Shown: positions 21,421 through 59,102, counted from the first letter of the stretch. The stretch is 64,000 nt of DNA from Candidatus Poribacteria bacterium (GCA_022822785.1 JAJEAL010000134.1:75349-139348); one strand, 5' to 3'. Made by a program: numbers and translations. The notes: generated from the sequence alone by a model not told the origin.

Positions 21421-23445
21421 ATGACCTCAACCGAAAAGCAGGAAATTCCGTGGGGCGACATAGGGGAACCGTTGGCAGATTTGCTTCGGTATGAACGCGA
21501 AATCGGCTGCTACGAGCACGCAAGCTACGCTCTGCTGTCAACGGTTGTCCATGAGATGGCGGATTCGGCGTGGCGGCAATTCCTGTTGGCGGGGGATAAT
21601 TTTGCTGAAATAGTTGGGCAGGTCATCGCCATATCTGACAGGGAATCCAAAAATCCCAAGAAGGTTCTTGACGCAATTTGCGAATTGGTCAATGCCGCTT
21701 ACACCCGCACGCCAGAAAGCGCACGACAGTTCCTGAAAACGTACCTAAAGTACAGACCAAGTTTCCCGTATTCTATCCGAGAGGAGTTGGATGCGCTCTC
21801 AAAACAGGGAAAACGTCGGGTAGCGCTACGTGCGGCTGCTTTCGCAGCGGAGATGGAGCGTTTTCAACCGTTCCAGCCGTATAGTGAGATGGAAGAAGCG
21901 GTATGTGAACATTGGTACGAGCAGATTCTTCGAGGCGACGTAACCGCGCGCCAAGGACGCAGGGTACCTGCACAGATGCTCACCGCGAAAAAATGTTTGC
22001 TCAAGCATTGGCGTGAGGCTGAAGGGGATAGCCAGATTGAGGAGGAGGCAATATTCAACAGATATGCGGATGTTTTTAAGTCAACCAATATTTCGGCATT
22101 GACGGACGTTATCGTTGGCATGCGGCGTTTCCATCTGATACACGGTTTTCATGTCAAGTTTGATGTGAAAGAGATTGAACTTTTCCTGAAAAACTTTCCG
22201 AAGGCGGAGGTGTTAAACCGGTTTGAGAAGTTAGAGCGGTGGCTGGATAAATACCACAAGACAAATCACGATGGCACGATATTAACTCCTCCGCTGATCG
22301 ACTTTTTATCGAACGATTCGGACTTTGACTCCCTACTTGCTGAACTTGATCGATATAGAGCGGATACACGGAACGGGCGATTCGATATAAATAACATCTT
22401 GCAACGAGATCTTGAATTTAGACGCTTCGCTTATGAGTACACACGTGTTTTGGAGCCGCTCACCTATCAACTCCAGAATCGATACCCCGCCCCAAGATCT
22501 AACAAAGAGCTGTACCGATTATTCAACCAACTTGAACAACTACCGACGGTGGCCGCAGATCCACCCCGTTTGGGCGAGCAGCACCTCGCAGAAGTCCGTC
22601 GTACTGCATACGAAGCTGTGGAGTTTCTCAAGTTTTTGAGAGGGTTCCGAGCGCGTACTAGCAGGCATATTGTGGTAGTGGGGAATGATCGTTATGGACG
22701 GCAGTGGGTTGTCGAGCCTATTGAGGCGTATCTTAAAAAGCGCTTCACGCTTAGGTATGACCGCGTGCGTTCCGGCACTTCTACGAGACTGAGTGTGCCT
22801 TCGGCGTTCCCAAGGGAATTTGTCAAAGAGATCAGTGCACGGATGCCCCATATCGTGATTGTCGATGCCTCCCATGCGCCGCCGAGAAACAACGTGATGC
22901 AACTTTCCCGCGGCCTCCGAGGCTATGCCCACTGGTTCGCTGTATTCAACGACCTCCGCGCTGAAGGCAACCTTGCTGTATACCAAGATGAAAGTTCTCT
23001 GCCCACGTCGCATTTTCCCGAACTGATGAAATGGCACGAATACGTTGCGCGGAGAGAGCAGTTACGGGAATGGGTTTCGCCGGGCGAAACTTACCGGGTG
23101 ACGACTTGGGCACCAGAGTTGAGGGACACTGTGATACTGGGTGATATGGAGGTGAAGCGTTATCCTCCGGTATCTCATGAGGAGATAGGGGGCGATTTAC
23201 CAGCAGTGATTCTAGCAAATCCTATAATATACCGCACAGAGGGCGAGGACCTGCCAGATGCGCTTCGGGGGACCACACCGCGCCACTTCGATGACCCAGA
23301 AGCTCATGCAGTGGATAGGGTTGTGTTCGGATTTGGTTCCCACGGGTTTGAGACCCGACTTGAAGGGATGAGCACAGAGCAGTTTGTCCAGACAGCTCAG
23401 GGGCACATCAAGAGAGAGATTGATAGGCTGTTAGAGGAATCGTAA
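21421..23445 (+). CDS. Large hypothetical protein (674 aa), no recognised domain
   Basis: Long uninterrupted ORF, 6 bp after the preceding gene, coding-like composition. Confidence 0.5.
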
Positions 23446-24310: not shown

Positions 24311-25237
24311 GTGAGAAAGAAAAGAATCATTTGCGTCCATAGAAAGAGGTTTGTTCGTCTGATGTCACAGAAAAAGGGTTCACTGGATTTCCTAGAGGGG
24401 GTCACGGACGAGGTGGTTGAGTGGCGGATGCTCAACATGGACTCCGAGTTGGTCACAGCCAATCTGAGTCGCACAATCGGTCCTGGTATTCGTAGTACGC
24501 TCAGCCCTCACTGGACCTTTAACGCCAAACGCGGCGACGGTATTGTTCCGCTTAATAATATCCTGAGATTTGAGACCTTCGGTGTGCACTGTCCTTTGGG
24601 AACAAAGCTACAGCAGGAAACGCGGTTACGACTGGTGACGACGCGTGACGATAATGGGAAGTTGAAACGCGGTCACCTAGCGATGAACTGTGAATTGTTC
24701 AACAAAGACGCTGACTCTCGACTGCGAGTTGGACGTGCCGAATTTTGGATGGCGCTGACTCGTCCGCTAGCTCCACCGGGGCAACATAGACCGACCGACG
24801 TGCCGGAGGCGATCAGGTTCTTGGAGGAACATGAAGCGACCGAAAGTGATCTGGTCAGTCGGGGCATTGAGTCGTACCGTTGCCGGACAACTAACGGCGG
24901 ACAAGCCTTCCATGACACAATGCCGCTGGTTTTCCATATGGATCGCTCGGATATCTACCGTCACATTAATACGGCTGTGTATATGAACCAAGCACAGGAT
25001 TACTTAGCACTCCTGTATCACAAAGTCGGCGGAGATGCCGGGCGGCTGCGGTTCCGTGAAATCATGATCTATTTTCGCAAACCGTTCGTACCGGGACAGG
25101 CGGCAGAGGTGGAGTTGGACTTTGTCGAATACCCAGACCGTTTCCACGGTGCTGTCCGCTTCTACCATTCTGAGCGCGAAGGTGGTCGGAGTGAGCGGAT
25201 TTCTATGGCAATGGAGACGCGGGGCCCCCTACAGTGA
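24311..25237 (+). CDS. Hotdog-fold thioesterase-like protein (possibly double hotdog). The start may be the internal Met at about 24365.
   Basis: DIYRHINTAVYMNQAQD resembles the DxxGHVNNAxY thioesterase motif. Confidence 0.4.
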   Translation: MRKKRIICVHRKRFVRLMSQKKGSLDFLEGVTDEVVEWRMLNMDSELVTANLSRTIGPGIRSTLSPHWTFNAKRGDGIVPLNNILRFETFGVHCPLGTKLQQETRLRLVTTRDDNGKLKRGHLAMNCELFNKDADSRLRVGRAEFWMALTRPLAPPGQHRPTDVPEAIRFLEEHEATESDLVSRGIESYRCRTTNGGQAFHDTMPLVFHMDRSDIYRHINTAVYMNQAQDYLALLYHKVGGDAGRLRFREIMIYFRKPFVPGQAAEVELDFVEYPDRFHGAVRFYHSEREGGRSERISMAMETRGPLQ

Positions 25238-37059: not shown

Positions 37060-40000
37060 TTACTTGAGTATCAGCATCTTCCTCGTTGCTGTGAACTCTC
37101 CTGCTGTCAATGTATAGAAATAGAGTCCACTGGCGAGGGACTCTCCAAGTTGATTCCGTCCGTCCCAATATACCGCACGGCTGCGGCTTCGATAGATACC
37201 CGCTGCCTGATGCCCCACCGCCAACCGTCGTAATAGCTGCCCAGCCCCATCATAAATTGTCAGCGTGACTTCTGCTGGTTCCGCTAACTGATACGGAATC
37301 CATGTCTCCGGGTTAAATGGGTTTGGATAGTTACGGAGCAATGCAGTCTCATCGGGAATCAGTGAGGCTAGCAGTTTTTCGAGATTTTCGATGCCCTGCT
37401 TGAAGGCGAGTGAACCGTCATTCTCCAACCGTGCCTGTGCGATCCACGCTTCTATCATTTCCGCATCTATGTTGTCTGTCCCAACCGGCGGTGCTGCAGG
37501 AGCGGTGGTGCTACCGATTGCCTGTGCAACGACAGCCAGATCAAGGATGTTGACAACACCATCACCGTTGACATCCGCAGGATCGTCAGCAGAAACCGTT
37601 TGATTCAGTTTCTGTGCAACAAGCACCAGATCTACAATGGTGACAACCCCATCTCGATTTATGTCTCCCATAGTAAGTTCTTCCTCGACAGTGATGCGGA
37701 TGCCGTGGGCGATTGCATCAATCGTAGCACCGCCAAGCGAGACGAACTGGAGGTTACGCAGTGTTACCTCCGATTCTCCACTCGCTTTCGCCTTAAATCG
37801 CGCCTTCACCAGGGTGCCGGTGCCACTGACACCTTGAGTAGATAGCCGCGCAGCGGCGAGTCCAGTGATTTGACCGCTACTATTATCAATGCTCCCACCC
37901 TGAAAGAAGGTTGCTGCGCCTGTTTTTAGGAAATCACCTTCGGTTACATCAACGGCTTCAAGTATGTTGGGATCAAACACAATATCAAACTGCCAACCCA
38001 TCAAGTCCGAGACATTTCGGGCGTGAATATTGAGGGTAAACGTCTCGTCGCGATGAATGGTTGCGGGGGTGACCGTGTATTCAACGCCGATATTTGTGAC
38101 GGTATATTCCGTCCCCGGTTCAAAGCCGAAAAAGGCGTTGTTATCTCGATATCTGATGTGCATCGCGACCAACAAGACATTTATCCCTTCCTGAAGTGTG
38201 ACCGGGAAAAAATCTTGGTAATCAGGATGCTCATGCCAACTCTTACGGAGACCCTCGTGAATCAAAGTCCCGTTGAGCCAGACCTTAAGCTCGTCATCGC
38301 TGCCGGCGTACATCGCCGTTTCCTGTTCCCGCGGTGAATAGAGAGACACAGTGCCATAGATGACTCCATCACCGAGGGAGCGTTGAAACATATCTCCAAT
38401 GTTGTCATCGCCTATAGGCAAGAGTCTACGAGAGGTCCACACCGCATCCCCGACCGACTTCCCTTCTGTTACCCCATGTGTCGCAATCTCCACCTCTGTC
38501 ACCATCCCTCCACTCGCGCCTGATAGTAAATCCTTGCTGCCATCTATTTCTGTATCCGGTAACACGACCCATAGCCACGGTCCCTCTATCTTCGGTCCGC
38601 CTTTTGGAAACCCTGGATTGTTGTACCATGTAAGTTTTGTGTTCTCGCGTAACCCTGCAAGCGGAGATATGTCTGATATGTTATTGTTATCAAGTGTGGT
38701 CCATCGCAGGTTAGTTAACCCTGCAAGCGGAGATACATCGGATATATTATTGTTGTCAAGTGTGATCCATCGCAAGTTAGTTAAACCGGCAAGTGGAGAT
38801 ATATCCGATATTTTGTTAACTTGGAGATCCAATTGTTCCAAGTTAGTTAACCCTGCAAGCGGAGATATATCCGATATTGCATTATTGTCAAGTACGAGCC
38901 ATCGCAAGTTAGTTAAACCGGCAAGCAGAGATATATCGGATATTGGTATTCTGTTACTTCCGAGATTCAGTATTGTTAAGCCGGTAAAACTCGCCAAAAG
39001 TGTTAGGTCCGATATTTCTGCACTAGGGATATATAGAATCTCCAGTTTTGGTAAACCAACAATGGGGGATAGATCGGATAGAGGGAGGCCGGCCGCGTGA
39101 ATTTTTTTTAGATTGATTAATCCCGCAAGTGGGGACAGATCGGAGATCGGCATGTCATCAATTTCTATATTAGTGAGATTCGTTAAGCCCCGTACAGGAG
39201 ATAGATCAGATAAGAGATTTTCTTGAATCAAGAGTACGCGCAGGTTGATTAATGTAGCAATTGGCGATAGGTCAGAAATCTGATTGCGGTCAAGGGCTAA
39301 AAATTCCAGATTTTTTGCAAATTGCATACCCGTCAAATCTTGGATATCCTTGTCCTTTGCGTCAAGTTCTTCCAACCTTTCCATCTCCCTCACAGTGATT
39401 AGGGCGTTAGGATTCTTGCCGAGAGTCTCTGCAATTGCAGCACGGAGGTTGGGGTCAGGAATACGAACAACGGTTCCCGGCGGCTGGTCAGGCTGCGAGG
39501 GACTGTCTACCTGTTCGTCAGGGAAGTCCAACGCGTAAATGATCGCAGGAAAATTAGATGTCCATGCGTCCCGTTTCATGCTGCCATTGGGACTGTCCAA
39601 TACCAATAATCCCGCGTTCTGTAGCCCTATATTCTCACGTATCTTCTCTTGGAAGGTTTCCATCTCTAACCCAACTGATGCAGCGGCGTATGCAGCGTCC
39701 ACAGCCCCTTGAAACACCTCATGGAAGCGGGAGATTGGCTCTATATCATCAACCGCACCGCCTGTCGCTTCCAACGCCTCTTTGTACGTATCCATATCCT
39801 CCTGTAAGAGTGCGTCCATCTCTGATCGTTCCACGTAGAGGCGTAACGCCTGCGCCTTGTCATACGCTGGATTGGTATTTGCCTCAATCACCGAACGCAC
39901 CTCATCCTCAAAGGTGTTCATACCCTCTATATGGCAGCCGAGACAGGATAACCCATTCCGCACCGTCGGGTCACTCGCTGCGGGATTGGAAACAATACTT

Positions 40001-41180
40001 ATCGGTGCCTCGTTTAACCGAGAACCGGACGCATTGGTAATGTAGTAACCTTGTAGCCCGTTGGGCAGGTTGAAGATAACCTCCCCACCATCATGGGTGA
40101 AAGCGAGGGGGTGGGTGAAGATGTTCTGTGTGCCGACACTGCCAGCGAAGTCGTAACTTTTCCAATACGCGCCGTAGCGAGAGGTATGCCGCTCCAACAT
40201 CCGGTTATTCGCGGAGACCCCCGAATTGTTCGTGCCTGCTCGCCAGACACGCACACCCGGTGCATTTTGGAGGTTGCGGACGACATCGACCTCCAGTCGG
40301 GTCTCTAACTCCCTGTCGGTTAATGGTAGAGACAGTAGGTCGTGGTATAACGGGGGTAGAGATGCATTTGCCAGAAACCAGTCAATATGAATCGATGGTA
40401 TATCACACGCCATCTCCGTCTGTAACCGCGTCAGTTGTGCCTTCAGTGCGGTCTGTGTGGGTGCATCATACGAGATATGATAGGGATATTCTGCTTCTAT
40501 CTGCGTCCAGGCGTCATTGACATCCCACTCGTAGTGTCTGAGGTCGATGTAGAAAATCGTCCCCTGAGTGTCTATCGGCTCTGGGTTGGTAACGGCACTT
40601 CCCCATGAGAGACTGTTGACTAACTTGTTAAGTCCCTTACGGTATTCTTGGAGGATGCTCGGTGGCTCGCCTGCGTTGTAGAGATGTGTCATTGTGAAGT
40701 AACGGGCAAAAGCACGGTCAAATGACGAAAGTGACATCAGGTGTGTCTCAATGGTGGTGAGTACTTCACTAGGCGAGATAAAGTTACCATTGGTTGTGGT
40801 GGTCGCTGCCCAGTCAGGGGCACCGGCTAAAATCCAATTCCGAATGGTGTTAATTTCTTGATCGGATAGGGGAGGCTGATTGAGTGGCATCCGTTTGGCG
40901 GTGTCAGTGGTTATGAGTCGGTTATAGAGTTCGGAGGTCTGCGGGTTTCCGGGGACGACGGTGCCATTTTCGATGAGTGCGTTGTGTTCAATTAGGAGTG
41001 CATCTTTAAAGGATCCTGTGGGACCGTGGCAGACGAAGCATTTCTGTTCAAGGATAGCGTGGGCATCGAGTGCTACCCCCTGTTGAGCGGTTACGGTTTG
41101 AGAACCGACCATGAGAATTAATAAACTGATGAGTACGATGCGATACTGCTGCTTACAAACCACTGAATAACGCTTAAACA
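37060..41180 (-). CDS. Giant secreted multidomain protein: signal peptide, two CXXCH haem-c sites, ~12 leucine-rich repeats, cohesin-like domain, two dockerin repeats, T9SS (Por) C-terminal sorting domain
   Basis: Start taken at MFKRYSVVCKQQYRIVLISLLILMVGSQTVTA. Motifs CFVCHG and CLGCH. LTNLRWLVLDNNAISDISPLAG x many. GWQFDIVFDPNILE. DINRDGVVTIVDLVLV / DVNGDGVVNILDLAVV. C-terminal NYPNPFNPETWIPYQL...GLYFYTLTAGEFTATRKMLILK. Confidence 0.75.
38650..39330. repeat. Intragenic 66-bp tandem repeats encoding the 22-aa LRR units
   Basis: Periodic ...gcaagcggagatat.tc.gatat... on the plus strand; the antisense ORF shows a repeated LVNPASGDISDI. Confidence 0.7.
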
Positions 41181-41300
41181 TAGAGAGTAACTCCTGAAAT
41201 GCAAGTTTGTAAAGGTTACGGCACACGGCGTCCCGACAAATTGGGACGATAATCTGTGCCCTCTGTGTCCTCCGTTGAATCCGCGATTCAGACAAATGCC

Positions 41301-41380
41301 ACATGTCGCCCCGCTGGGGCTTGGAAGGAAGAGCCTATCGCCTGGCTATAAACATATCGCCCCTCTGGGGCTAAATGCCC
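41301..41380. repeat. Two further copies of the hairpin repeat family, upstream of the giant gene
   Basis: ACATGTCGCCCCGCTGGGGCT (41301-41323) and TATAAACATATCGCCCCTCTGGGGCT (41348-41373). Confidence 0.45.
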
Positions 41381-41525: not shown

Positions 41526-42416
41526 TCATGCAATCTTGTCCAATTCTTGACGCAAGGCCGATGGTAAGGGTCCCATTTCTGACGCTTGGGCGACATCCTC
41601 AAGTTCGGAGATGTTCGCTGCGCCGCTGGAAACCGTGGTTACCCTTGAATCAGCGAGGATGTATTGGAAGGCATTTTGTGCGTGTGTGCCCGGCAGGTCC
41701 TGAAGTCGTCCGAGGACACGCTGGACCCGTTTCCGTTCCGCTTCATCCTCTATCGCTGCGACCGCCTCTGATCGCCGGGGTTCGTCGGCGAACAGCAGCC
41801 CCGCCAACGGTGTGGCGATAACGATCCCCATATTGTGAGCGGCGGCAGCAGGAATAACCGCTTTCGCTGCCTTTTGCGAGCAGGGGTGGTAGTCGTGATA
41901 TACTAGCACTGTGTCAAACTCCCCGGTGTCGGCGAGTTTGGCTAAGAGTGGAATGGCTCTGCCCGTGATTCCGATTTTTTCGCAAAGTCCGCGCTTTTTC
42001 GCTTCCTTCAAGCCGTCGAGCGTTCCGCCCGGTTCTGTGATCCGTTCCCAACCCGCCATGTTGACCTCATGGATCTGGGCGATGGAAAGTTTTGGGATGC
42101 GCAGCCGTTGCAAGCTCCGTTCGATGCTCCAAACGACGTTGTCTCCGCGGTAGTCGAAGTTTGGAGGATCGTAACCGACTTTGGTGGCGACGTAAAAGTG
42201 TTCCGCTACGCCTTCGAGGGCACCGCCCAACAGTTCCTCGCTCTTGCCGTAGAGCGGGGCGGTGTCGATATAGTTGATCCCTAATTTGAGTGCACGCCTC
42301 ACCACTTCATCGGTACTCTCTTGGGCACGTTCGGGATCGGTTCCCATCAGGTACGCGCCGCCGAGGCTAACCTCGCTGATCTGCCAACCTGTGCTTCCCA
42401 TCGTTCGATAGTTCAT
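41526..42416 (-). CDS. Aldo/keto reductase
   Basis: 296 aa, AKR family overall sequence (INYIDTAPLYG). Confidence 0.8.
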   Translation of the reverse strand: MNYRTMGSTGWQISEVSLGGAYLMGTDPERAQESTDEVVRRALKLGINYIDTAPLYGKSEELLGGALEGVAEHFYVATKVGYDPPNFDYRGDNVVWSIERSLQRLRIPKLSIAQIHEVNMAGWERITEPGGTLDGLKEAKKRGLCEKIGITGRAIPLLAKLADTGEFDTVLVYHDYHPCSQKAAKAVIPAAAAHNMGIVIATPLAGLLFADEPRRSEAVAAIEDEAERKRVQRVLGRLQDLPGTHAQNAFQYILADSRVTTVSSGAANISELEDVAQASEMGPLPSALRQELDKIA

Positions 42417-42453
42417 TTGTCACCTCACAGTTTTCGCTCATGTTAAGAAATGG

Positions 42454-42747
42454 TCAGAACTTACGTAAGGTCAGCGTACCTTTCCGTGCCATGTGGTACG
42501 GAGAGTAGCCCACCGGACAGGGTGGAGCGACGGTGACTTGGGGGTAGAGCTGCAAGGCGGCTTGCTGAGAGATGAACGTAGAGAGGACAATATCTAGGTC
42601 TAGGCTCAGGTGTTCGTTGTGCTGCTCAACTGCGCCGATGGGGATGATAGCGGCTTTCAGCCTGCCGCTCTGCAACGCTTCCCGAATCTCTTTCCGGGTG
42701 CACTCGCCTAGCATGACTCGGTAGGGGTTGACGTATCGGTTCGCCAT
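42454..42747 (-). pseudogene. Creatininase-family (creatinine amidohydrolase) N-terminal fragment, 97 aa
   Basis: AAIIPIGAVEQHNEHLSLDLD matches the creatininase V.PVGS.EQHG.HLPL.TD motif. It is only about one third of family length, with no room for the remainder. Confidence 0.45.
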
Positions 42748-42760
42748 GATTTAGGCTCCT

Positions 42761-44014
42761 TTATCCTTCCAATCGTCGGACGGTGCTGCCGCCCTGCACG
42801 GCATCATAGATTTCCTTGAATCCATCGCTTCCATCGTCGGGCACGGCTTCCAGATTAGATCCTGCCTCGCAGGTCGGCATGGCGTCGTTCGGATAGACTG
42901 CGTGGAGGTCCTGTTTGTTGCAACCGTAGTAGGTGACTTCTCCGCTTGCGCGAGAATAGCGGTAGATGTGACGGGGAGTGTCTACAAAGGAGTAATCCAC
43001 CTTGTATTTCTGCACCGCTTCTTCGTCAACCTCCACGCCGATGCCGGGCTTCTCTGGGACACGGTAGAAACCGCCGCGCAACTCGATCGGTTCGGTGATG
43101 AGTTGGCTCTCCCAGATGTTCATGCAGGTGATCGCGGGCCACTTGGCTTGAGCGCATACGACACCGAGGTGGGCTGCCCATGTGGTGGTGATACCGGTGC
43201 CGACAAGTTGTAACCAGAAGGGTTTGTTCGCTTCTTCACAGACGGTTGCCTGTTTCAACAGACGGTGTGCACCCGCGCAGATGACAAAGCCATCCGCTAC
43301 ATCTTCCTGCAGCGTAGTCAGGATAGGCGGGGAGCCGTAGTGCATTGCCACGGGCCTGTTGATACGTTGGCGGATCTGTTTGTTCCCGGCGACATCGCCT
43401 TGTGGAATTGGACTTTCGATCATGGCGACCCGTTCGTACTGTTCGAGGGTCTTGAGGAACTCGACAGCGTTGGCTGCGTTTGCCAAGGTTGCATTGAAGT
43501 CCAGATCCAGCTTGAACTGTGGGGGCACATCTTCGATGATGGCTCCGATGGCTGCGTGTAAGTCGTACCAGGTCCGCGCCTTGAGTTTAGAGGACATATA
43601 CCCTTGTTCGGCTGCATCAGCGCATTGTTGCGCCCAATCTTTCGGGGGCATATCCATCGCCCACCAAGAGAGCGGGCACCACTCTCGGACCTTCGTCCCC
43701 AGAAGGCGATAGGCAGGCGTATTCAAGGTTTTACCGACTGCGTCGAAGAGTGCGATTTGGACGCCGGCACCCAAACCGTCCTCCCACAGCAGATCTCCAG
43801 CCTCGCGTCCCACGATCTGTTCTTGGATATCATCGGACACCCTTGCCCAAGTGTAGTTGGGGATGGTCTCGCCCCAGCCGACCACACCGTTATCGAGGGT
43901 GATTTTGCAGATTTGGACAATATGCCAGTGCGGCAGCCAATACTGCATATGTTCGTTTGTATGTGGCGTGAAGGGAACGTCTAAATAGGTAAGTTCAACA
44001 TCGGTGATTTTCAT
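42761..44014 (-). CDS. Enolase-superfamily enzyme (mandelate racemase / muconate lactonising enzyme-like)
   Basis: 417 aa, MR_MLE N-terminal capping domain and barrel-domain pattern. Confidence 0.7.
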   Translation of the reverse strand: MKITDVELTYLDVPFTPHTNEHMQYWLPHWHIVQICKITLDNGVVGWGETIPNYTWARVSDDIQEQIVGREAGDLLWEDGLGAGVQIALFDAVGKTLNTPAYRLLGTKVREWCPLSWWAMDMPPKDWAQQCADAAEQGYMSSKLKARTWYDLHAAIGAIIEDVPPQFKLDLDFNATLANAANAVEFLKTLEQYERVAMIESPIPQGDVAGNKQIRQRINRPVAMHYGSPPILTTLQEDVADGFVICAGAHRLLKQATVCEEANKPFWLQLVGTGITTTWAAHLGVVCAQAKWPAITCMNIWESQLITEPIELRGGFYRVPEKPGIGVEVDEEAVQKYKVDYSFVDTPRHIYRYSRASGEVTYYGCNKQDLHAVYPNDAMPTCEAGSNLEAVPDDGSDGFKEIYDAVQGGSTVRRLEG

Positions 44015-46422: not shown

Positions 46423-48921
46423 GTGAAACATCTCTTGTCGATATGGGAGGCGAATTTGTATCTGTTCTTCGCCCTTGTGATGCTCATTCTCGTAATGCCG
46501 CTCGCGGCTCTGTCCCAAACCGGGACGATTGAAGGCACTGTTTATGATGGGAACACCAACGCCCCGGTCGTCGGCGCAGATGTTCATATCCTCGGGACCG
46601 ATGAACGCCAAACAACCGATACGGAAGGGAAGTTCTGGTTTATAGAAATGGTTCCAGGCACCTACACCGTGTCAATTATTCACAAAATGTACGACACCCC
46701 TACAGAAACCGATGTAGAGGTCACCGCAGGTCATACCACTCAAGTAACGCTGTACCTAGGCGAGGTACTCATGCTAGAAGAGGTTATTGTTGAAGGGGAA
46801 CGCCTCCCGCCAACAATCAGTCGAAAGGACATCCGCGGGAGCGAATTGATACGTATCCCCGGCGTTGGTAATGATGCGCTCAAGGGGTTGACAACGCTTC
46901 CGGGCATCGGTGTTCCCAATGATTACTTCGGCATTCTCTATATCCGTGGAAGTGAGCCGGGATCTAACCTCTACTATTTTGACCGGACACCGCTTGGATA
47001 TCCGTTTCACTGGGGCGGTCTACTCTCGACTGTCAGCTCGGAAGTCATTGATAAAATTGATATCTATGCCGGTGGATACGGCGGGGAATTTGGGTTGGAT
47101 TCGCAGGCGGTGTTGGACATCCACTCACGTGATAGCATAGAAGAACGGATAAGCGGTAAATTTAACCTGAACATCCTCTACTCCGAAGGGCTGCTTGAGC
47201 GCAGACTTGGGGATGAGGGATATGTGTCTATTGCCGGACGACGGAGCTACATCGATCTCATTGTTGGACGGTTCATTGATGAACAGCAGTTTCCCTACTT
47301 TTCGGACTATCAACTCAAATTTGCCTATCCTCTTGGTGAAAGGCATTGCTTGACACTCAACAGCTTTGCTGCAACCGATCATTTCCACGTTGAGGAGGCG
47401 ACATCTGTAGAAGTTACAGAAGTGGAGAGCGGTCAGATGGAAGAAGAAACGCAGACATTTGAAGGTGCACGCGCCTCTGCTTTTTTCAAAAATGGGTTTA
47501 ACGCACAAGGCCTCCATCTCCATTCCAATTTCACTGAAAATCTTACCTCCCAGTTCTCGCTCACCCGTTCGTTCAATTTCCTCACTATCAACTTTGAAGC
47601 GCCCATCACGGAGTCGTATGAATTCGGTTCGGACGGTGAACTTGTGTCTGAAGTGGACTACGGTCACTACGACATAAATATCAAGGTTCCGGTCTATACG
47701 TTGAGAGAAGACGTGTCCTACCGATTAAATCTACGTCCTGACGATACTAGTCATCAAAGTGAGTCTACCGCATTGGAAACAGGATTCCTTCTTTCCTTCA
47801 GTCCTGCCAACAGTTTCGAGGACAGCAGGATTCCACAATTTGAAGAGCGCGATGACCGCGAAGAAACGGTTACCCTAGTTGTTGATGAAAATGGGGAGGC
47901 GGTCGAAGAAACTATCGTGGGTGGAGAAGGATTGGAGTTAGTTAGTATTGAAGAGAATCACTACGAATTCGGGCACGATTTCCGGCGCGCTGAGGGTTAC
48001 CTACAGGGGCGATATGACCCGTTGCCGTTTCTCTCTGCTGCGCTAGGGATTCGGTTGGATTATCTGGACGTGACAGGGCAGACCTCCATACAGCCGAGGG
48101 GGAGCTTAAGTTTTGCGTTGCCGGGCGGTTCTAACCTCCGGTTCGCGTATGGACATTATGAACAGAGTCCACAACCGCATCAGATACTGTCGGAGAACGG
48201 GAATTCTGCGTTGGAATCAAGCCTTGCGCGACACTATATCATGGAACTTGAAGGCGAACTTTCATCTCGCACGGAATTGAAGTTCGCTACTTACTACAAA
48301 GATATGCAGAAGTTGGTCACAGCGGATGAGATAGCGAATTATCTTAATCAGGGAACTGCGTATGTTAGCGGGGCAGAGGCGTTCCTGCGGCACCGTGTGC
48401 CAGATAAGTTCTTCGGCTGGATCTCGTATGCTTATACGCACGCTGAACGGCGCGAGAATCCGGGGGATTTCTACCGACCTTATTTTTTTGATAACACGAA
48501 TATTGTTAGCGTTGTTGCCAACTACAACTTCACGCCTAAGTTTGAGATTGGCGCGAAGTGGCAATATTTGAACGGAACCGCTGAAGTGCCAATCAGCTCC
48601 GTTGTTCTCGTTCAAGACCCGCTGACACGCGGGTTGAACCCGCTTTTGGCGGATATTGATGAATCCGTTACTGCTGAACTGACCCCGTACCATAAGTTGG
48701 ATCTCCGGGTGAGTTACAAATTCGACTTTATGGGCTTACGGATAGGTGCGTTTCTCGATATTCTGAACGTCTACAACCGGAAAAACAGTGTGAAATTTGT
48801 CTTTACCCCGGATGAGCTGCTTGAGGTTCAAGGTGAAGAGGTGGAAATCGAAGAGCCTGAAATCTTTGAGGCGCAGCAATTCCCGCGCATTCCCTATTTT
48901 GGTCTGACTGTTGAATTTTAA
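46423..48921 (+). CDS. TonB-dependent-receptor-like outer-membrane protein with an N-terminal CarboxypepD_reg domain
   Basis: 832 aa, signal peptide, GTIEGTVYDGNTNAPVVGADVHI, plug-like region, long beta-barrel-like C-terminus ending in Phe. Confidence 0.65.
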   Translation: MKHLLSIWEANLYLFFALVMLILVMPLAALSQTGTIEGTVYDGNTNAPVVGADVHILGTDERQTTDTEGKFWFIEMVPGTYTVSIIHKMYDTPTETDVEVTAGHTTQVTLYLGEVLMLEEVIVEGERLPPTISRKDIRGSELIRIPGVGNDALKGLTTLPGIGVPNDYFGILYIRGSEPGSNLYYFDRTPLGYPFHWGGLLSTVSSEVIDKIDIYAGGYGGEFGLDSQAVLDIHSRDSIEERISGKFNLNILYSEGLLERRLGDEGYVSIAGRRSYIDLIVGRFIDEQQFPYFSDYQLKFAYPLGERHCLTLNSFAATDHFHVEEATSVEVTEVESGQMEEETQTFEGARASAFFKNGFNAQGLHLHSNFTENLTSQFSLTRSFNFLTINFEAPITESYEFGSDGELVSEVDYGHYDINIKVPVYTLREDVSYRLNLRPDDTSHQSESTALETGFLLSFSPANSFEDSRIPQFEERDDREETVTLVVDENGEAVEETIVGGEGLELVSIEENHYEFGHDFRRAEGYLQGRYDPLPFLSAALGIRLDYLDVTGQTSIQPRGSLSFALPGGSNLRFAYGHYEQSPQPHQILSENGNSALESSLARHYIMELEGELSSRTELKFATYYKDMQKLVTADEIANYLNQGTAYVSGAEAFLRHRVPDKFFGWISYAYTHAERRENPGDFYRPYFFDNTNIVSVVANYNFTPKFEIGAKWQYLNGTAEVPISSVVLVQDPLTRGLNPLLADIDESVTAELTPYHKLDLRVSYKFDFMGLRIGAFLDILNVYNRKNSVKFVFTPDELLEVQGEEVEIEEPEIFEAQQFPRIPYFGLTVEF

Positions 48922-48974
48922 CGGTTCGCAAAATAGGTTTGAAGCATTAAATATTGAAGGGAGGTTGAACAAAG

Positions 48975-49646
48975 ATGAAATGTAATCAAGTACAGGAAAA
49001 GCTACTTCACTCTATTGACAAGGAGTTGTCTCCACAGATTCGAGAGCATCTGCTTGGCTGTAAAGAATGCGAGCAGAAATATCGAATCTTACAGACGACG
49101 CAGAAATCGCTAGAAGATTTTGGCCGTGCTGTTCGAGATGGTTCTATTTCAATGGAGGCACCGCCATTTCCGCCGGTTCGACGCCGTTCCTTCTGGATCG
49201 AAATACGCGATAGCCTGAAAACGCCGGTGCCGGTGTGGATACCATCTGCTATCGGTGTGGTTGGGTTGCTGCTGTTCGTTGTGTCGATTTTTTCGCCGCT
49301 CACGCCGTCGGTGGAATGGGGTACACAAAAAGGGAGTGAAAATGCAGGTCGCATCGCTCCACCACTCTCAGCGGAGGGGATGTTGGAGTTTCTCATTATG
49401 CCTGAACCAACGGATGCAGCACAACTCGCCGCCTCAATCGAAACAGTTGAAACGTTCCTGAAGATGCATCCCGACGATCTCGCGATGCATGCCAAACTGG
49501 TTGATCTGTATCAATCTCGACTCAAGTTGGGGGAACTGTCCGCCGGCGAGCGCGACGCCATGGCAGAGAAATTATCACTTGAACGACAACGTTTTTCAGC
49601 GCTGCTGGAAAATTTTACGAAAGGGGTAGAGAATGATTCAGAATAG
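48975..49646 (+). CDS. Anti-sigma factor (zf-HC2 putative zinc finger plus a single TM helix)
   Basis: 223 aa, CxxxxxxLLxxxDxELxxxxxxHLxxCxxC motif and one TM segment (VWIPSAIGVVGLLLFVVSIF). Confidence 0.7.
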   Translation: MKCNQVQEKLLHSIDKELSPQIREHLLGCKECEQKYRILQTTQKSLEDFGRAVRDGSISMEAPPFPPVRRRSFWIEIRDSLKTPVPVWIPSAIGVVGLLLFVVSIFSPLTPSVEWGTQKGSENAGRIAPPLSAEGMLEFLIMPEPTDAAQLAASIETVETFLKMHPDDLAMHAKLVDLYQSRLKLGELSAGERDAMAEKLSLERQRFSALLENFTKGVENDSE

Positions 49647-52600
49647 CTTGGGACAAACAGGTGGATGGAAGGAGGGAAAGATGGAAGGATGGAACCAATC
49701 TTCCATCTTCGCTTCCGCTTGCATCTTGATTCGATGGGCGCTTTCGGTCTGTAGTTTATTTGTAATTTTTTCACAGCCCATCCACGCTGAACAATATGCC
49801 ATCCTCGTGGGCGTTTGGGACTATGAAAATCCAAACTTACAGCTTGATGCGCCGCCAAACGATTTGAAGCTGATGGAAGCGGTGCTCTCGGCACAGGGTG
49901 TCACACAGGAACAGATGCACATCCTCCCCAATCCGAACAAGGCACAGATTCAACGTAAATTTCGGGAACTCAGCCGCCGCCTGACCCCTTCCGATAGCCT
50001 GCTTTTTTATTTTAGTGGGCATGGCACGCAGATTATTGACAAACTCGGAACTTTTCCGGGGGATGAAGCGAAAGGGCGATACCCGGACAGGAACGATGAA
50101 GCACTGTTGCCTGTGGACGCGGATCTGGCATCGCCCAAGACGTACCTGTTGGATGACGAACTCAATACCCTGCTCCAAGAACTGCCGACGCAGCAGGTCT
50201 CCTGCATTATTGACACATGCTACTCCGGCGACATACTTCGAGAGATTCGTCTGGGACGGCCCAAAGGCTCGCCGGTGGCGGATACCCCAACGGGGATCGC
50301 TCAACCTACCCAGATTGTAAGCCATACGGAGGACATCTTGGATGAGTCCGCCGATTTTGCGCTGCTGTTAGCGGCTTCTGCATACAATCAGGTCGTCCAT
50401 GAACTGCGCATCCCGATTGGCGAGACCTATCTACCTGTCAGTGCGATGACCTATTCTCTCTATCGAGGGGTGTTTGCGCGCTCGCAACCTCCTGCAGATC
50501 AGATGGACGCGAGACAATGGGACGGCAAACTGACGTACCGCCAAATTATTCAGCATATCCAGAACGACCATAGGCAGTGGAATCTAGCGTGGCAGCCTGT
50601 CCTTGAGGGACCAGGAAATCGCTTCAATGAGGTGTTTCTCCCTACTGACTTGATGCCGCAATTAAACGACACATTAACCCTGACAACAATAAAGGGGCAG
50701 TCGATATCGGTGAGTCGGCGGGCGTTGGCGCTTGCCGGTGGTGGCAATTTTCAGCTTGGCGCTGCGAGTGGTATCAACACCCGACATTGGGCGGTTGTTA
50801 TCGGCGTGGATGCGTATCCGTCACCCTTTCAGTCGCTCAAGTATGCTGCCGATGATGCCAAAGCGGTCGCGCAGGTGTTCCAAGATGCAGGCGCCAATGT
50901 GACGCTGATGACGCCTGATAGCCTGATTCAGCCGACGAAGGCGAATATAATTGAACAGCTCCAACGACACGCTCAACTTGAAGGGGTAGATCTGCTGACC
51001 GTTTATCTCTCTGGGCATGGCGAGGATGTCAATGGAACAGGTTACTTTCTACCGATGGATGTCGCCGATCCACTCGTGGACGGTGGACTGAGTCTTGAAA
51101 ATCTGTTTGCGATTCTCAACCGCGCAAACGCCAAGCATCGGTTCGTCATCGTTGATGCGTGTCGAGTGGCACCGAAGGCCCACTTCGTTGCGGCGCTGTC
51201 GCGCTATAGTGAGGAGAGCAATATCATCTTCACAGCGTGTGATAGCAACCAGTGGGCACCGGAAGTTCCACGCCTGAAACATGGACTGTTCACCTACTTC
51301 CTGCTCAAAGGGCTGCGCGGCGGCTCCCAGGACCGGGGCGCAGCAGGTGCCGATGGGACCGTCACGGTATTGGGGTTATTGGATTATGTGACACGCGGCA
51401 TTGAGGAGTGGCATTCCCACCTGTCCGAGGAGCAACACTATCCGCAGCAGATTACGCCCCGCGTCTTTTATAACGGGAAATATATCTCACTGTTGAACAA
51501 CCAAGGGATTGACCCGGCGGTGATCAACAATGAAGGGCTGCTTCCCCAAATTACCAATACGTTCCGACATCAACTCGCCCGTAGCTTGGAATTAGCACCT
51601 TCTTCAGAAAGAAATGATGGTGTTACACCGTCAACCCCAAAAGGTAACGATTTACATCTGCCTGTGACCATTTCACTAATTCCGTGGATTAGTAGTGTTG
51701 GCGTCCATGACTTCAACCGTAATATCACAACGAACCTGTCACTCAATATTATTGCAGGTTATCATACCAAGTTGGATGGCATCGAATTGGGTGGGGTTTT
51801 GAACATAAAGGGGCTTGAGGCGAAGGGCTTACAATTCGCTGGGGTTGGGAATATCGTCGGTGGGGATGTAGACGGTTTCCAAGTTTCAAGTGCACTTAAC
51901 GCTGTGGGCAGAAATATGGAGGGTTTCCAAACGTCGGGTGGAGTCAATGCTAGTGGTCGCGACGTTAACGGGTTCCAAGTCGCGGGTGGTGCCAACATCG
52001 CCGGCAAAAACGTGGAAGGTTTCCAAGCGTCAGGTGGAGTCAACGTTAGCGGTGGTAATCTCGATGGTTTCCAAGCAGCGGTGGGCGGCAATGTGGTTGG
52101 CAGAGATGTGGTCGGTGTCCAAGCCACAGTCGGGGCGAATCTGGGTGGGCGTGACCTTCGAGGTTTGCAGGCAGCTGGCGGCGCGAACTTCGTCGGTGGG
52201 AAAGTGGGAGGTCGAAGTCTACAGGCCGCGGTCGGACCCAACATCGCTGGGCGTTTAGAGGGGACACAGCTCAGCGTGTCTGCTAATATCGCGCTTGATC
52301 GGTATCAAGAGACAAATCTCTCGTACGCAGGTACACAGATTGGGATGGTCAATATTGCGCCCGGTGATATTGGGACACAGATTGGGCTTCTCAATATTGC
52401 TGGTCATGTGGGTACGTCGCAGGTGGGCCTGCTTAACGTCTCCGGACGGATGTCGGGCGTCCCGATCGGATTGATCAGTTTCGTCAAGGATAATCCACTA
52501 CACCTGCAACTGTGGAGTAGCGATACGGAGGTTGCAAACCTTGGGATTCGACTCGGTAGCCGACACGTTTACAGTCTGTTGATGATCGGCAGTTACCCAC

Positions 52601-52950
52601 ACGGCGATTTGGGCAGATGGTCGTCCGGGTTTGGTATCGGTGGGCACATTCCGCTCGGCAGGCAACTCTTTCTGAACGTTGACTTTATTACGCGCCAGGT
52701 GGGTTATACCGACGAATGGGCGGAGGAGACTTGGCGGTATGATGAACACACCGTCTTGAACAAACTGCGCCTTGGGTTTGGCTGGGAGCAGCACAAATGG
52801 TTCAGCTTCTTTGGTGGTGTTTCGCTCAACTTCCTCGTCTCGGATAGAGGGGACACTTCGGATTTTGGGTACGGATTTGATCATGTATACCGAAGGGATG
52901 ATACGACCGTTCGTATTTGGCCCGGGTTCTTTGCGGGGGTTCAGTTTTGA
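49633..52950 (+). CDS. Secreted tandem-caspase (peptidase C14 x2) protein with Gly-rich 16-aa repeats and a beta-barrel-like C-terminus
   Basis: His/Cys dyads FYFSGHG...DTCYSGD and VYLSGHG...VDACRV. Signal-like N-terminus. Repeats GFQxxGGxNxxGxxxx. C-terminal ...GFFAGVQF. Confidence 0.7.
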   Translation: MIQNSLGQTGGWKEGKMEGWNQSSIFASACILIRWALSVCSLFVIFSQPIHAEQYAILVGVWDYENPNLQLDAPPNDLKLMEAVLSAQGVTQEQMHILPNPNKAQIQRKFRELSRRLTPSDSLLFYFSGHGTQIIDKLGTFPGDEAKGRYPDRNDEALLPVDADLASPKTYLLDDELNTLLQELPTQQVSCIIDTCYSGDILREIRLGRPKGSPVADTPTGIAQPTQIVSHTEDILDESADFALLLAASAYNQVVHELRIPIGETYLPVSAMTYSLYRGVFARSQPPADQMDARQWDGKLTYRQIIQHIQNDHRQWNLAWQPVLEGPGNRFNEVFLPTDLMPQLNDTLTLTTIKGQSISVSRRALALAGGGNFQLGAASGINTRHWAVVIGVDAYPSPFQSLKYAADDAKAVAQVFQDAGANVTLMTPDSLIQPTKANIIEQLQRHAQLEGVDLLTVYLSGHGEDVNGTGYFLPMDVADPLVDGGLSLENLFAILNRANAKHRFVIVDACRVAPKAHFVAALSRYSEESNIIFTACDSNQWAPEVPRLKHGLFTYFLLKGLRGGSQDRGAAGADGTVTVLGLLDYVTRGIEEWHSHLSEEQHYPQQITPRVFYNGKYISLLNNQGIDPAVINNEGLLPQITNTFRHQLARSLELAPSSERNDGVTPSTPKGNDLHLPVTISLIPWISSVGVHDFNRNITTNLSLNIIAGYHTKLDGIELGGVLNIKGLEAKGLQFAGVGNIVGGDVDGFQVSSALNAVGRNMEGFQTSGGVNASGRDVNGFQVAGGANIAGKNVEGFQASGGVNVSGGNLDGFQAAVGGNVVGRDVVGVQATVGANLGGRDLRGLQAAGGANFVGGKVGGRSLQAAVGPNIAGRLEGTQLSVSANIALDRYQETNLSYAGTQIGMVNIAPGDIGTQIGLLNIAGHVGTSQVGLLNVSGRMSGVPIGLISFVKDNPLHLQLWSSDTEVANLGIRLGSRHVYSLLMIGSYPHGDLGRWSSGFGIGGHIPLGRQLFLNVDFITRQVGYTDEWAEETWRYDEHTVLNKLRLGFGWEQHKWFSFFGGVSLNFLVSDRGDTSDFGYGFDHVYRRDDTTVRIWPGFFAGVQF
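51870..52265. repeat. Intragenic ~48-bp tandem repeats (about 8 copies) encoding the Gly-rich 16-aa units
   Basis: Periodicity is visible in all frames. The antisense frame gives PPTxxP repeats. Confidence 0.6.
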
Positions 52951-53066: not shown

Positions 53067-56000
53067 TTAGACCAATGCTGCGCTGCAAATAATCTTTGGA
53101 ACGGTTTCATTTTCAAGTTGTGCGGCTTGCTGCCTCGATTCCCATTCCCGCATGTTGTGTTGACGATACAGGTCTCTCAGATTTTTCAGCAAGGCATCTC
53201 CGGTCACGCCGTTTCGACGCAGTAAATTGAGTTCTCGATTCACCGCGGTTGTAATTGTCCCACGAAACGCCTTTTCCAGTGTGCTGACTTGAGCGGAGAC
53301 ATCTTCATCACCACCCCCCGCCCCCCCGCCGCTAGCGGGGGGGAGAGAGGGGGTAATGATTTTCAATTCCCTTAACACATACCGTTGCCCCTGTGTCAGG
53401 GAGAGGGTGTGCTTGCGTTCCGATTGCAGGTCTTTGATTTCTTGGATGAATAACCGCTTGACCCCCATGATAGTCGCATTGTAATCCGTAGGCAACTCGC
53501 CCCCGGGAAGTTCCGGTTCGCACTCAATCTGATTGAGGATGCGGGAGATGTCTCTGGAGGTAATATCGCCTTTTTCATCCAAAAGGAACAGTTGTTGATA
53601 ACGTCCCGCTTGACAGAACAGATAGGTGCCTTCTGAGCCTTTTGGGATTGCTGTGCGAATCCCGTCTCTCAGATTCGCGATTCGCTCATACTCCTCCGGA
53701 TCCTCACGCCGCAGCTGTCTCAGAATTTCTTCGGCTTCGTTGAGATCGATTACCTTTTCATCTTCGCTTTCTTCAAACAGACTCAACTGCTCGCCTTCCT
53801 CCTCATAGATAGCATACATCGCCGCTTCGTTAAGTTGTTCGGAGTTATCGAGGATAGCTGCGTCCTCACCAATCGTATCGTGAATTTCTTGGATACGGCG
53901 TTGAAGGATTTGTTGCAATCCCAAATTTTGTTCGATGCCGGTTTCTGGCAGAAAGTTAAAGCCGTAAATCACATCGTGCTCGCTACCGATACGGTCGATA
54001 CGCCCGAATCGCTGGATCAGTCGCACAGGATTCCAGTGGAGATCGTAGTTAATGATTTTGTCGCCGTCCTGTAGGTTAAGTCCTTCCGCCAATACGTCGG
54101 TAGCGATAAGGGTGGACAGTTCCGATTCTCCACGCTGAAAACGGTACTCTGAATTTGCTTTCGGCGCAAAACGCCCCACGACCCGTTCTTTGCTTTTATC
54201 ACCGCTATAGATCACGTCAATATCAGTCCGTTTGCTGTTGGGGTTAATATTGTCAAACAGATAACGCGCTGTATCCGCATATTGGGTGAAGATTAGGCAC
54301 TTTCCCTCGTTAAGAGGCGGTTCTGCCAACCGTTTTTTGAGGATTTGCAGCTTCGCATCTTGCTCAGCGGTGATTGGTGATACAAGGTCTGACATCGCTC
54401 GTAGCAGCTGGAGGTCATGCTCAATATCCCCACGTAGCTCGTCGATTTTGAAATCTGCAATGTTGTATCGCGCTGAAGCTTGCCTCAACGCATCCATCAG
54501 GTCCTGTTCCTCTGCTTCGTTCGGTTCGTAGAGGAGGTCTTGTGCTTGGTCACCGGCGGGAACAATGCCTTCTTCTATAGCTTTGAGAAAGCGTTCGTGA
54601 ATCTTCAACAATCGACGCACTGATATCTTAAAGGCGTACACACTGGATTCAAATCGCTTGAACAGGAGTATCCGCATCAGCCCACGAAGGTTGACCCCTG
54701 AACGTTGCAGGTTGGTGTAGGGCTCCTGTTTCTGCTTTGACTTAATTACGTAATTCCAGAGCCCATAGCGGGCATAGGTTAGTGTGCTAACTGAAGAGGA
54801 AGGTGATCGGCTGCCTCGCGGTTTTCCCAGATGTTCCCGCAGCTGAAGGTAAAGCCCCTGATAGGTGTCTTCAATATTGTAGGAGATGGTTTCCAAGACA
54901 CGATTGGGGAAGAACTGCTTGTTTCCACCGACAACGACGTAAGCCTTTCGATGTCCGTCAAGATACTCCTGAAATTGGGACGGATCAACGGGTTGGTCGG
55001 TCTCTCCGTCGAAGCCGTACCAACGCAAGATATGATTGCGGGTGCGTCGGATGAGGATATTTCCTAACAGGTCGGGGAGATTTTTTTCTCGCTTCTCAAT
55101 CTGGCGAAAGTATGTCCGCAGGTTGGGGGGATCTATTGGTAAGTCAGTGATGTCTTCGGGGTGAAAGAGTTTAATCTGGTGGTATACGTCCCAAGCACTC
55201 TTGTTGCGTGGTGTCGCGGTGAGAAAACAGCATTGTCGCCCGGTGGCTAAAAAGGCCTGCAGCACTCTGTAACGTTGCGTGTCACGATGGCGGAAATTAT
55301 GACTCTCATCAACCAGTACAAAGTTCCGGTCGCGGTATATCACATCATCAAGAATTGTCGAAGTGAGATCGTACCCCTGTTCATCCGGTCGATCCTCACC
55401 TTCTCGTAAATGTCCCATAGAAAGGACGCGGGCGTTGAGTTGATAGACTTCGTTGTAGCGTTCCCACATTTGGACCAACGGGGCGGGGCAGACAATTAGT
55501 GGACGTGCATTTTCCGCCCATTCAAAATACTTGACAATTGCTGCACCGATGTAGCTTTTACCGAGACCGACGACATCTGCGACAAAGGCACCGCCGTAAT
55601 CCCGAATAATCTGCACCGCTTGCTGGACCGCAACTTTCTGAAAATCCGCTAACTGTTTGGTAATGTCCTCCTCCCAGAGTATGTCCCCCTCGTCGCCCCC
55701 TTCAAGTCGATCTTTAACCAACTCATAGAGTGTCTTCATGTAAATGTCGTAGGGGGACACGGGGGCGATTGCCCACGATGATTTCATTACCTCCATTAGG
55801 GATTCATCGAAATTTTGCGCTTCATCCCAGAGTTCGTCGAACCAGCGACATAGTTCGGCGTGGTTTGCGTTCCCTTGCACCACAACGTTTAGCTCGGTAT
55901 TGTGGCTTACACCGGCTAGTGTGAGGTTAGATGATCCGACAACGGCGATGCCTTTTTCATAGCGTCCTTCGTCGTTATAATCGAAGATGTAGGCTTTGGC

Positions 56001-56791: not shown

Positions 56792-56824
56792 TGACTTGTA
56801 TCTCCTACGGATTGTTTTGATGGG

Positions 56825-56848
56825 CGGGGCAAGATGCCCCGCCTACGG
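56825..56848. repeat. 16-nt hairpin CGGGGCAAGATGCCCC, copy 2, extended as GCGGGGCAAGATGCCCCGCCTACGGG
   Basis: Identical core to 53017-53032, in the same orientation. Confidence 0.6.
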
Positions 56849-56860
56849 GATATGGTGTTA

Positions 56861-57331: not shown

Positions 57332-57336
57332 CGGTT

Positions 57337-58560: not shown

Positions 58561-58676
58561 CGCTTATTCCTTAGATGAATATGCTATTGTCTGAATCGTG
58601 GATTGTCGTGGATTAACGCATGACACGGATTAAATCCCCGGTTTCCCATTGCTGGAAATTGTTACTTCCCTTGCGG

Positions 58677-58964: not shown

Positions 58965-59102
58965 AGAACCTCTTTTCTTTTCGGGACAATGTCCTTTGAC
59001 TCCCTCTTGTCAGGAAGCTAGCAAAATATCTTACTTATTTTTACTTCATTTTGGCATTGATCATAGGAGGGCGATTTACTACGACGAGGTAGTCCAGCAG
59101 AT

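Follow-up and report, generated by a model that had tools for sequence, protein, structure and literature searches.

Poribacteria are among the most abundant uncultivated symbionts of sponges. Leucine-rich repeat (LRR) adhesins that depend on the type IX secretion system (T9SS) are known from the Bacteroidota, for example BspA of Tannerella forsythia and InlJ of Porphyromonas gingivalis, and in known T9SS systems the usual outcome of carrying a type-A C-terminal domain is anchoring at the cell surface. Kamke et al. (2014, PMC3909097) also reported LRR (PF12799) and TIGR04183 sorting domains in abundance from single-cell genomes of Poribacteria. Here we describe a gene lying on the minus strand, at 37060..41181, of a 64,000-nucleotide stretch of Candidatus Poribacteria DNA (GCA_022822785.1, JAJEAL010000134.1:75349-139348; the whole stretch is called the window below). 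As judged from its sequence it most likely belongs to a family of modular, exported binding proteins that is specific to Poribacteria and has expanded greatly there. Its product runs from a signal peptide through a class-I cytochrome c domain, a domain of ~435 amino acids (aa) with a second CXXCH motif, an LRR block and a jelly roll to a cohesin, a two-loop dockerin, a helical linker and a C-terminal domain resembling the T9SS type-A sorting domain.

A fixed architecture in an expanded family

The open reading frame (ORF) listing gave a single long minus-strand ORF in this region (37060..41304), within which the ATG at 41181 is the likely start of a complete gene of 1373 codons plus stop, with an AGGAG ribosome-binding site read directly from the sequence about 9 nt upstream (41191..41195, minus strand). 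An independent gene call on a 338-kb scaffold of the ENA assembly ERZ23491076 gave an identical 1373-aa product, and homologues share the N-terminus beginning MFKR, which agrees with this start. A preliminary description of the window had located the gene correctly, but its 5' end (37060-41180) was one base short, its strand was missing and its product was given as 1,370 aa.

A genomic scan using one genome per species found at least 582 copies of the family (a lower bound), all in metagenome-assembled genomes of Poribacteria, many of which are complete chromosomes of 5-6.8 Mb. At least 11 copies on the single chromosome OZ242335.1 were among the best 80 matches, and family copies stand in tandem at 9 loci. 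An N-terminal query of 561 residues matched 2337 proteins among 8000 candidates scored, the best 120 of them all being 76-85% identical and the named ones coming from Candidatus Poribacteria, while a C-terminal query of 518 residues matched 7398 proteins among 8000 candidates scored. Domains of the window protein were mapped onto 78 loci, which held 80 copies with enough contig around them; the order haem module, LRR, middle domain, cohesin, dockerin, linker and C-terminal domain was kept in every one of the 80, and 77 were single intact ORFs of 1331-1578 aa. This architecture is the rule in Poribacteria and not the rare combination that had been supposed from the single sequence. A symbiont source, also proposed at that stage, was borne out by flanking genes 88-96% identical to those of Candidatus Poribacteria chromosomes, and every relative of the gene that was found was poribacterial.

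Family proteins in the databases are often only 547-975 aa long and have out-of-frame tails; because of these tails, and because 77 of the 80 mapped copies are intact, the short proteins are probably frameshifted gene calls and not isoforms. Many members (P0001-P0240) are split or truncated in lower-quality assemblies, as with P0001 and P0121 on one 6.5-Mb contig, and database counts of the family are therefore inflated and the lengths misleading. No description of the family was found in the literature on Poribacteria with cohesin/dockerin, T9SS or LRR/cytochrome. What is new is that seven modules keep a fixed order, that this architecture has expanded within a single symbiont phylum and that cohesin proteins accompany it; every part is of a known kind save the body of the haem module.

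Modules of the protein

All of the features listed in the preliminary description are present: the two N-terminal CXXCH motifs of its haem-c sites can be read in the sequence, and Pfam and NCBIfam searches backed its dozen internalin-type LRRs, cohesin-like domain, two dockerin calcium-binding repeats and C-terminal sorting domain; the jelly roll and the helical linker had been missed. Coordinates below are those of the window and, save for one unstranded DNA repeat, lie on its minus strand.

A Sec-type signal peptide occupies aa 1-32 (41086..41181), with a basic n-region, a hydrophobic stretch (IVLISLLILMV) and a cleavage site between VTA and QQ; these n-, h- and c-regions were assigned by eye from the sequence and not by a predictor. 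Signal peptides of paralogues (P0001-P0120) have, like that of the window protein, an unusually long conserved n-region, MFKR(Y/H)..V..LI..CKQQ..I.LI, and the same motif is present in an LRR-only neighbour at locus L025. This conserved n-region may be a dedicated targeting motif.

The haem module (aa 35-560) begins with a class-I cytochrome c domain at aa 35-125 (40807..41079), to which Pfam PSCyt1 gave 24.8 bits against a cut-off of 22. A profile of the family matched solved class-I cytochromes (FoxE, 5mab, 4.5e-9; Kuenenia c-552, 7o38, 5.5e-4; and CcoP), the match being limited to residues ~35-130. The first motif, CFVCH, is read at aa 48-52 (41026-41040), and in an alignment of 96 sequences C48, C51 and H52 were invariant, together with M98 and P99 (40885-40890). 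M98 follows the motif by ~40-50 residues and, from this position and not from coordinates, would be the distal haem ligand; as the match to solved class-I cytochromes extends over residues ~35-130, site 1 is predicted to be a His/Met class-I cytochrome.

Beyond the cytochrome, the module consists of a conserved domain of ~435 aa (39502..40806), predicted to be alpha/beta/alpha, with the second motif, CLGCH, at aa 413-417 (39931-39945). No Pfam or NCBIfam model covers aa 126-560. An AlphaFold2 (AF2) model of the module, built on the family alignment, had a mean predicted local distance difference test score (pLDDT) of 89.7 and a predicted template modelling score of 0.78, and after the cytochrome it predicts a helical region, a five-stranded sheet, the CXXCH helix and a further helical region. 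Foldseek gave no match to this model in the PDB (best E 0.75), and to call it a new fold would exceed this evidence. C413, C416 and H417 are invariant along with about 45 other residues of the domain, many of them polar or aromatic (for example R160, N189, W193, D267, R314, N326, R327, E330, R331 and H332, and the stretches YWxSYDF at 339-345, GGE at 365-367 and LPN at 372-374, all in the 96 sequences), and the core of the module (aa 270-450) has the lowest entropy in the family, 0.25-0.5 bits over 78 copies. Four of the six cysteines of the protein sit in the two CXXCH motifs, and since both motifs are invariant across the 96 homologues, down to 37% identity, their presence is far beyond chance.

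It had been held beforehand that motifs lying outside any cytochrome-like fold would speak against the preliminary description; CXXCH-1 lies inside a class-I cytochrome, but CXXCH-2 is not within a cytochrome or haem-sensor fold recognised by Pfam, NCBIfam or Foldseek against the PDB. At site 2 a second haem is probably bound covalently, within an uncharacterised domain, and H332 is a candidate for its distal ligand by inference only. Likenesses of site 2 to Cytochrome_C7, MtrC and Tll0287 were not accepted, being weak, motif-local matches (E 0.008-0.17) without fold support. A link to fatty acid cis/trans isomerase (Pfam CTI) was rejected: aa 86-168 aligned with positions 76-153 of a 692-position profile at 15.3 bits against 25 (E 0.008), the match was gone in 10 distant members, and in the paralogue P0246 it involved the same cytochrome-proximal stretch only.

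An exhaustive HMMER search of 1.84 billion cluster representatives found the haem module in 7685 clusters (50% identity), of which 1554 had E-values under 1e-30; the matches cover the ~520-residue module in full, at about 40% identity and with bit scores around 350-440. Named members are planctomycete (Gemmataceae, Pirellulales) proteins annotated as "mono/diheme cytochrome c family protein". The module stands either immediately behind the signal peptide or behind a region at the N-terminus with kinase, FHA, DnaJ or membrane domains; the domains found C-terminal of it in relatives are TPR, WD40, FGE-sulfatase, NPCBM, HEAT and Sel1, and those N-terminal of it are Ser/Thr kinase, FHA, DnaJ and zf-HC2. 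Poribacterial relatives at about 60% identity have WD40 or TPR-TonB_C-FGE-sulfatase domains in place of the LRR. P0246, P0258 and P0250 are poribacterial relatives of the module with such other architectures: one form, of 2278 aa, has two LRR blocks, another has many WD40 repeats and another is of the TPR-TonB_C-FGE-sulfatase kind. The N-terminal module defines a large extracytoplasmic haem-domain family, of which Pfam covers the cytochrome part only and which has no match among solved structures.

The LRR block (aa 570-855; 38617..39474) is of the internalin type and consists of a helical cap and 10-13 repeats of 22 aa; the hidden Markov model finds 10 in this protein, the count rises to about 13 with the cap and divergent units, and copies across the family have 8-16. 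Pfam LRR_4 matched at E 3.6e-33, NCBIfam internalin_A at 5e-45 and the internalin A structure 2omx at E 4e-83, with the cap included in this last match. Membership of the internalin family itself was rejected, as the cap and LRRs are present but the inter-repeat domain and the LPXTG or GW anchor are not, and NCBIfam internalin scores fall far under their cut-offs (154 against 1600 bits). Over the last LRR units Tandem Repeats Finder reports a 66-nt tandem DNA array (38650..38944) of 4.5 copies with 78% match.

The sequence after the LRRs (residues 856-1035) bore no annotation at first; its 175 residues at aa 856-1030 (38092..38616) are modelled by AF2 as a beta-sandwich with pLDDT 84-95. Foldseek matched this model to the N-terminal region of glycoside hydrolase family 2 (GH2) beta-glucuronidases and beta-galactosidases, and Pfam BetaGal_ABD2 matches the equivalent domain of the paralogue P0246; the model identifies the region as a galactose-binding-like jelly roll.

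The cohesin (aa 1031-1165; 37687..38091), which contains the motif GWQFDIVFDPNILE at aa 1062-1075, scored 47.4 bits with Pfam Cohesin against a cut-off of 24.1. Its model is predicted to have the nine-stranded jelly-roll fold of cohesins and was matched by Foldseek, at probability 1.0 and target TM-scores of 0.67-0.81, to the solved type II cohesins of A. fulgidus (2xdh) and C. perfringens (2jh2). The dockerin (aa 1170-1225; 37507..37674) scored 39.8 bits with Pfam Dockerin_1 against a cut-off of 22.9. It has the two F-hand segments of a type I dockerin, with calcium loops DINRDGVVTIVD (aa 1173-1184) and DVNGDGVVNILD (aa 1203-1214) and ligands at loop positions 1, 3, 5 and 12, and over 78 copies conservation exceeds 95% at loop positions D1, N3, D5, G6 and D12. 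It is followed by a conserved linker (aa 1236-1280; 37342..37476), which AF2 predicts, at low pLDDT, to be two helices and which is 55-92% identical between copies in the 78 loci.

The C-terminal domain (aa 1282-1373; 37063..37338; NYPNPFNPETW ... RKMLILK) scored 30.2 bits with TIGR04183 against a cut-off of 23 and 37.6 with FlgD_ig against 27. With a sorting domain by TIGR04183 and a Sec signal peptide read from the sequence, the protein has two of the features expected of T9SS type A cargo, and some relatives are named by NCBI "T9SS type A sorting domain-containing protein". Sorting-type C-terminal domains recur on many unrelated poribacterial proteins; this reuse, and the tight conservation of the domain, argues that something recognises it.

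Variation, proposed function and genomic surroundings

Entropy over the 78 copies was highest in the LRR and jelly roll (1.1-1.8 bits). Within the LRRs the scaffold positions are kept while positions 5, 6, 8, 10, 11 and 13, on the concave face, are hypervariable, with entropies of 2.9-3.9 bits. Seven positional orthologues were available for comparison, lying in Poribacteria assemblies between conserved, syntenic flanking genes (amidohydrolase, enolase-superfamily, aldo-keto reductase and S15 peptidase genes). These flanks show 88-96% identity and a ratio of non-synonymous to synonymous substitution rates (dN/dS) of 0.04-0.10. Within the gene itself the haem module is 73-81% identical (dN/dS 0.11-0.19), the LRR 53-57% (0.18-0.31), the jelly roll 62-66% (0.27-0.46, the highest in the gene) and the linker plus C-terminal domain 81-91% (0.07-0.13), the C-terminal domain being under the strongest constraint in the gene after the haem core. 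These alignments show the LRR concave face and the jelly roll to be diversified, and to be evolving much faster than the flanking genes. No diversity-generating retroelement or local hypermutation system flanks the gene, its neighbours being metabolic enzymes and a Uma2 nuclease.

In other genomes, cohesin and dockerin genes of further kinds adjoin those of the family. Two proteins of ~600 residues (L017:1708-3468 and L025:3875-5710) combine a signal peptide with an N-terminal cohesin, ~330 aa without a family match and a T9SS-like C-terminal domain, and a third (L025:10407-12416) has three cohesins with Pro/Thr-rich linkers between them; these look like the anchoring and adaptor scaffoldins of cohesin-dockerin systems. 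A further protein (L005:3-956) has the order LRR, dockerin, helical linker and sorting domain without the jelly roll and cohesin, and another (L025:12672-13619) carries the family-type signal peptide directly on the LRR cap without a haem module. The preliminary description had suggested scaffold chaining from the presence of a cohesin and a dockerin in one chain, and the adjoining cohesin proteins lend this idea indirect support. In the window itself, tblastn with each domain matched the gene alone and found no other copies or partner genes.

On balance we favour the view that the protein is an exported, diversified binding protein built into arrays by cohesin-dockerin pairing, and consider it probable. 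The protein would be exported by Sec and would receive c-type haem in the periplasm, at class-I site 1 and as a second covalent haem at site 2, and it would then be passed outward, or anchored, via its C-terminal domain. Its dockerin could dock on the cohesin of another family member, of a cohesin-plus-sorting-domain protein or of the three-cohesin protein, and its own cohesin could take a further dockerin, so that in this proposal many variants would be joined in one surface array. The variable LRR and jelly roll would bind diverse ligands, probably proteins and glycans of the sponge host or matrix, while the invariant haem module would give all variants a shared redox, sensing or catalytic role. 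A hypervariable LRR family with a built-in assembly system is a testable candidate for a host-interaction surface. A bolder extension, which we put forward tentatively and think somewhat doubtful, is that Poribacteria wear a coat in which dozens of LRR receptors, sharing the two-haem module and anchored in a T9SS-like manner, form a cohesin-dockerin-linked array, the haem module being a new extracytoplasmic haem enzyme or sensor, common to thousands of planctomycete proteins, which acts on or reports captured ligands.

Several observations weigh against the proposal of an exported, diversified array. The claimed T9SS domain is upheld by TIGR04183, though Pfam Por_Secre_tail (PF18962) gave only 17.9 bits on the window protein, under its cut-off of 27 (it gave 27.4 on the poribacterial cohesin protein at L017, start 1708). 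T9SS components were absent from the 40 window ORFs scanned, and in poribacterial single-cell genomes, which are incomplete, the sorting domain was found but Por structural genes were not (PMC3909097). This weakens the case for translocation across and anchoring in the outer membrane, and the FCB-group (Fibrobacteres-Chlorobi-Bacteroidetes) type of secretion that the preliminary description had read from the domain is not supported, the organism being a poribacterium. As dN/dS is below 1 in every domain, diversifying selection is inferred solely from relative rates. Uneven dS along the gene hints at exchange that confounds these rates in turn: L018, the closest orthologue, has its lowest dS in the dockerin (0.15) and its highest in the LRR (1.13), with flanks at about 0.5, and identity is 89-91% in the cohesin, dockerin and C-terminal domain (dS 0.15-0.47), 79% in the haem module and 55% in the LRR, a mosaic that suggests recombination or gene conversion among paralogues. 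Lastly, the haem module is membrane-proximal in its non-poribacterial relatives, including receptor kinases, which fits a periplasmic role equally well.

From this last observation arises the alternative that survives best, although we think it rather unlikely: that the protein is a redox sensor, or a scaffold for redox enzymes, in the periplasm or close to the inner membrane, with the haem module as its working part (a sensor or an oxidoreductase that modifies proteins), the LRR and jelly roll recruiting periplasmic partners and the C-terminal domain being merely an Ig-like fold with no export role. In Ser/Thr kinases, and in FHA, DnaJ and zf-HC2 proteins, the module does make up the extracytoplasmic portion, always following a signal peptide or transmembrane segment; its roughly 60 invariant residues, many polar or aromatic, are as in an active site or ligand pocket; and "PSCyt1/WD40" proteins occur in conserved gene clusters with DUF1501 in the Planctomycetes-Verrucomicrobia-Chlamydiae (PVC) bacteria (PMC3542564). 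The lack of demonstrated T9SS genes in Poribacteria (PMC3909097) also suits this alternative. However, a C-terminal domain held at dN/dS 0.07-0.13 and recurring on unrelated proteins fits a sorting signal, and fast-evolving LRRs, with cohesin-dockerin pairs and Pro/Thr-linked scaffoldins, are hallmarks of extracellular display.

The likeness of the jelly roll to the sugar-binding N-terminal domains of GH2 enzymes, and the existence of a three-cohesin, scaffoldin-like protein with Pro/Thr linkers, would also suit a targeting subunit of a cellulosome-like complex, in which the jelly roll would be a carbohydrate-binding module and the scaffoldins would carry hydrolases for sponge glycans. We regard this as improbable: there was no catalytic glycoside-hydrolase domain in the protein or in the 80 copies examined, neither a catalytic glycoside hydrolase nor a dockerin-bearing enzyme was found in the ~1 Mb of poribacterial loci examined, and the dominant variable element is the protein-binding LRR. 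Equally improbable is an effector released into the sponge mesohyl, its LRR binding host receptors like soluble internalins and its cohesin and dockerin serving only to oligomerise it, for although the LRR strongly resembles those of internalins A and B and a large, fast-evolving paralogue repertoire is typical of host-interaction factors, type-A C-terminal domains usually lead to surface anchoring and the adjoining cohesin-plus-sorting-domain proteins look like cell-bound anchors.

Conserved operon partners were sought by clustering neighbouring genes at the 78 loci and rejected, as this gave mainly the metabolic flanks common to the window's positional orthologues; most other recurrent clusters carry no annotation. 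Between the enolase-superfamily and aldo-keto reductase genes of the window lies a 97-aa creatininase-family ORF (~42416-42761; L079:1435-1728), and a recurrent neighbouring ORF of ~300 aa at other loci may be its full-length counterpart. A phytanoyl-CoA dioxygenase (PhyH) gene at 16931-17872 fits the PhyH expansion reported for Poribacteria (PMC3909097), and two ORFs of 674 and 308 aa without any Pfam match (21421-23445 and 24311-25237) lie within a metabolic cluster. The region 46423-52950 encodes an 832-aa TonB-receptor-like/CarboxypepD_reg protein, then a 223-aa ORF of no family and a 1105-aa caspase-domain (Peptidase_C14) protein. Beyond it is a defence island of low GC content (53067-63881; 39-48%), with an HKD plus Snf2 helicase protein (PADLOC C3a139, 292 bits), a Schlafen/AlbA_2 protein, AbiTii, a ThsB TIR-like protein (270 bits) without an adjacent ThsA, a second TIR protein and a fragment of a type IIG restriction-methylase.

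Comparison with known systems

Like BspA and InlJ of the Bacteroidota, the poribacterial protein unites a Sec signal with an LRR region for binding and a type-A sorting domain. Unlike them, it comes from another phylum, one without a demonstrated T9SS, it has additional haem, jelly-roll, cohesin and dockerin modules, and it belongs to a family grown to at least 11 copies in a genome. The finding makes it more pressing to ask what recognises a T9SS-like C-terminal domain in a phylum where no T9SS has been found.

With the Listeria internalins (InlA, InlB, InlH) it shares a helical cap followed by 22-residue LRRs of the pattern LxxLxLxxNxIsDisPL, and variability focused on the concave face of the LRR. 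Where internalins have an Ig-like inter-repeat domain after the LRR and an LPXTG or GW anchor, the poribacterial protein has a jelly roll, a dockerin and a sorting-type C-terminal domain, and it differs further in having a 530-aa haem module before the LRR and in coming from a Gram-negative-type organism.

The planctomycete PSCyt1 proteins, including PSCyt1/WD40 (PMC3542564), are homologous over the whole ~520-aa haem module, with both CXXCH motifs invariant. They differ in what is joined to it, having TPR, WD40, FGE-sulfatase, NPCBM or HEAT domains on the C-terminal side or kinase or FHA domains on the N-terminal side, and none of those examined has the cassette of LRR, cohesin, dockerin and sorting domain.

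Cellulosomal adaptor and anchoring scaffoldins and non-cellulosomal cohesin-dockerin proteins (A. cellulolyticus ScaA, A. fulgidus 2xdh, C. perfringens 2jh2/2vo8) offer a parallel for the joining of a cohesin to a dockerin within one polypeptide and for the cohesin fold; further likenesses are the two F-hand loops of the dockerin and, among the putative partners, a multi-cohesin protein with Pro/Thr linkers and cohesins on proteins that look like cell anchors. In cellulosomal systems the cargo is enzymes, whereas here it would be an LRR binding module and a haem module, and scaffoldins are anchored by SLH domains or sortase, whereas here anchoring would be by a T9SS-like C-terminal domain. The locus extends cohesin-dockerin assembly, as a prediction, to a non-degradative, Gram-negative-type setting.

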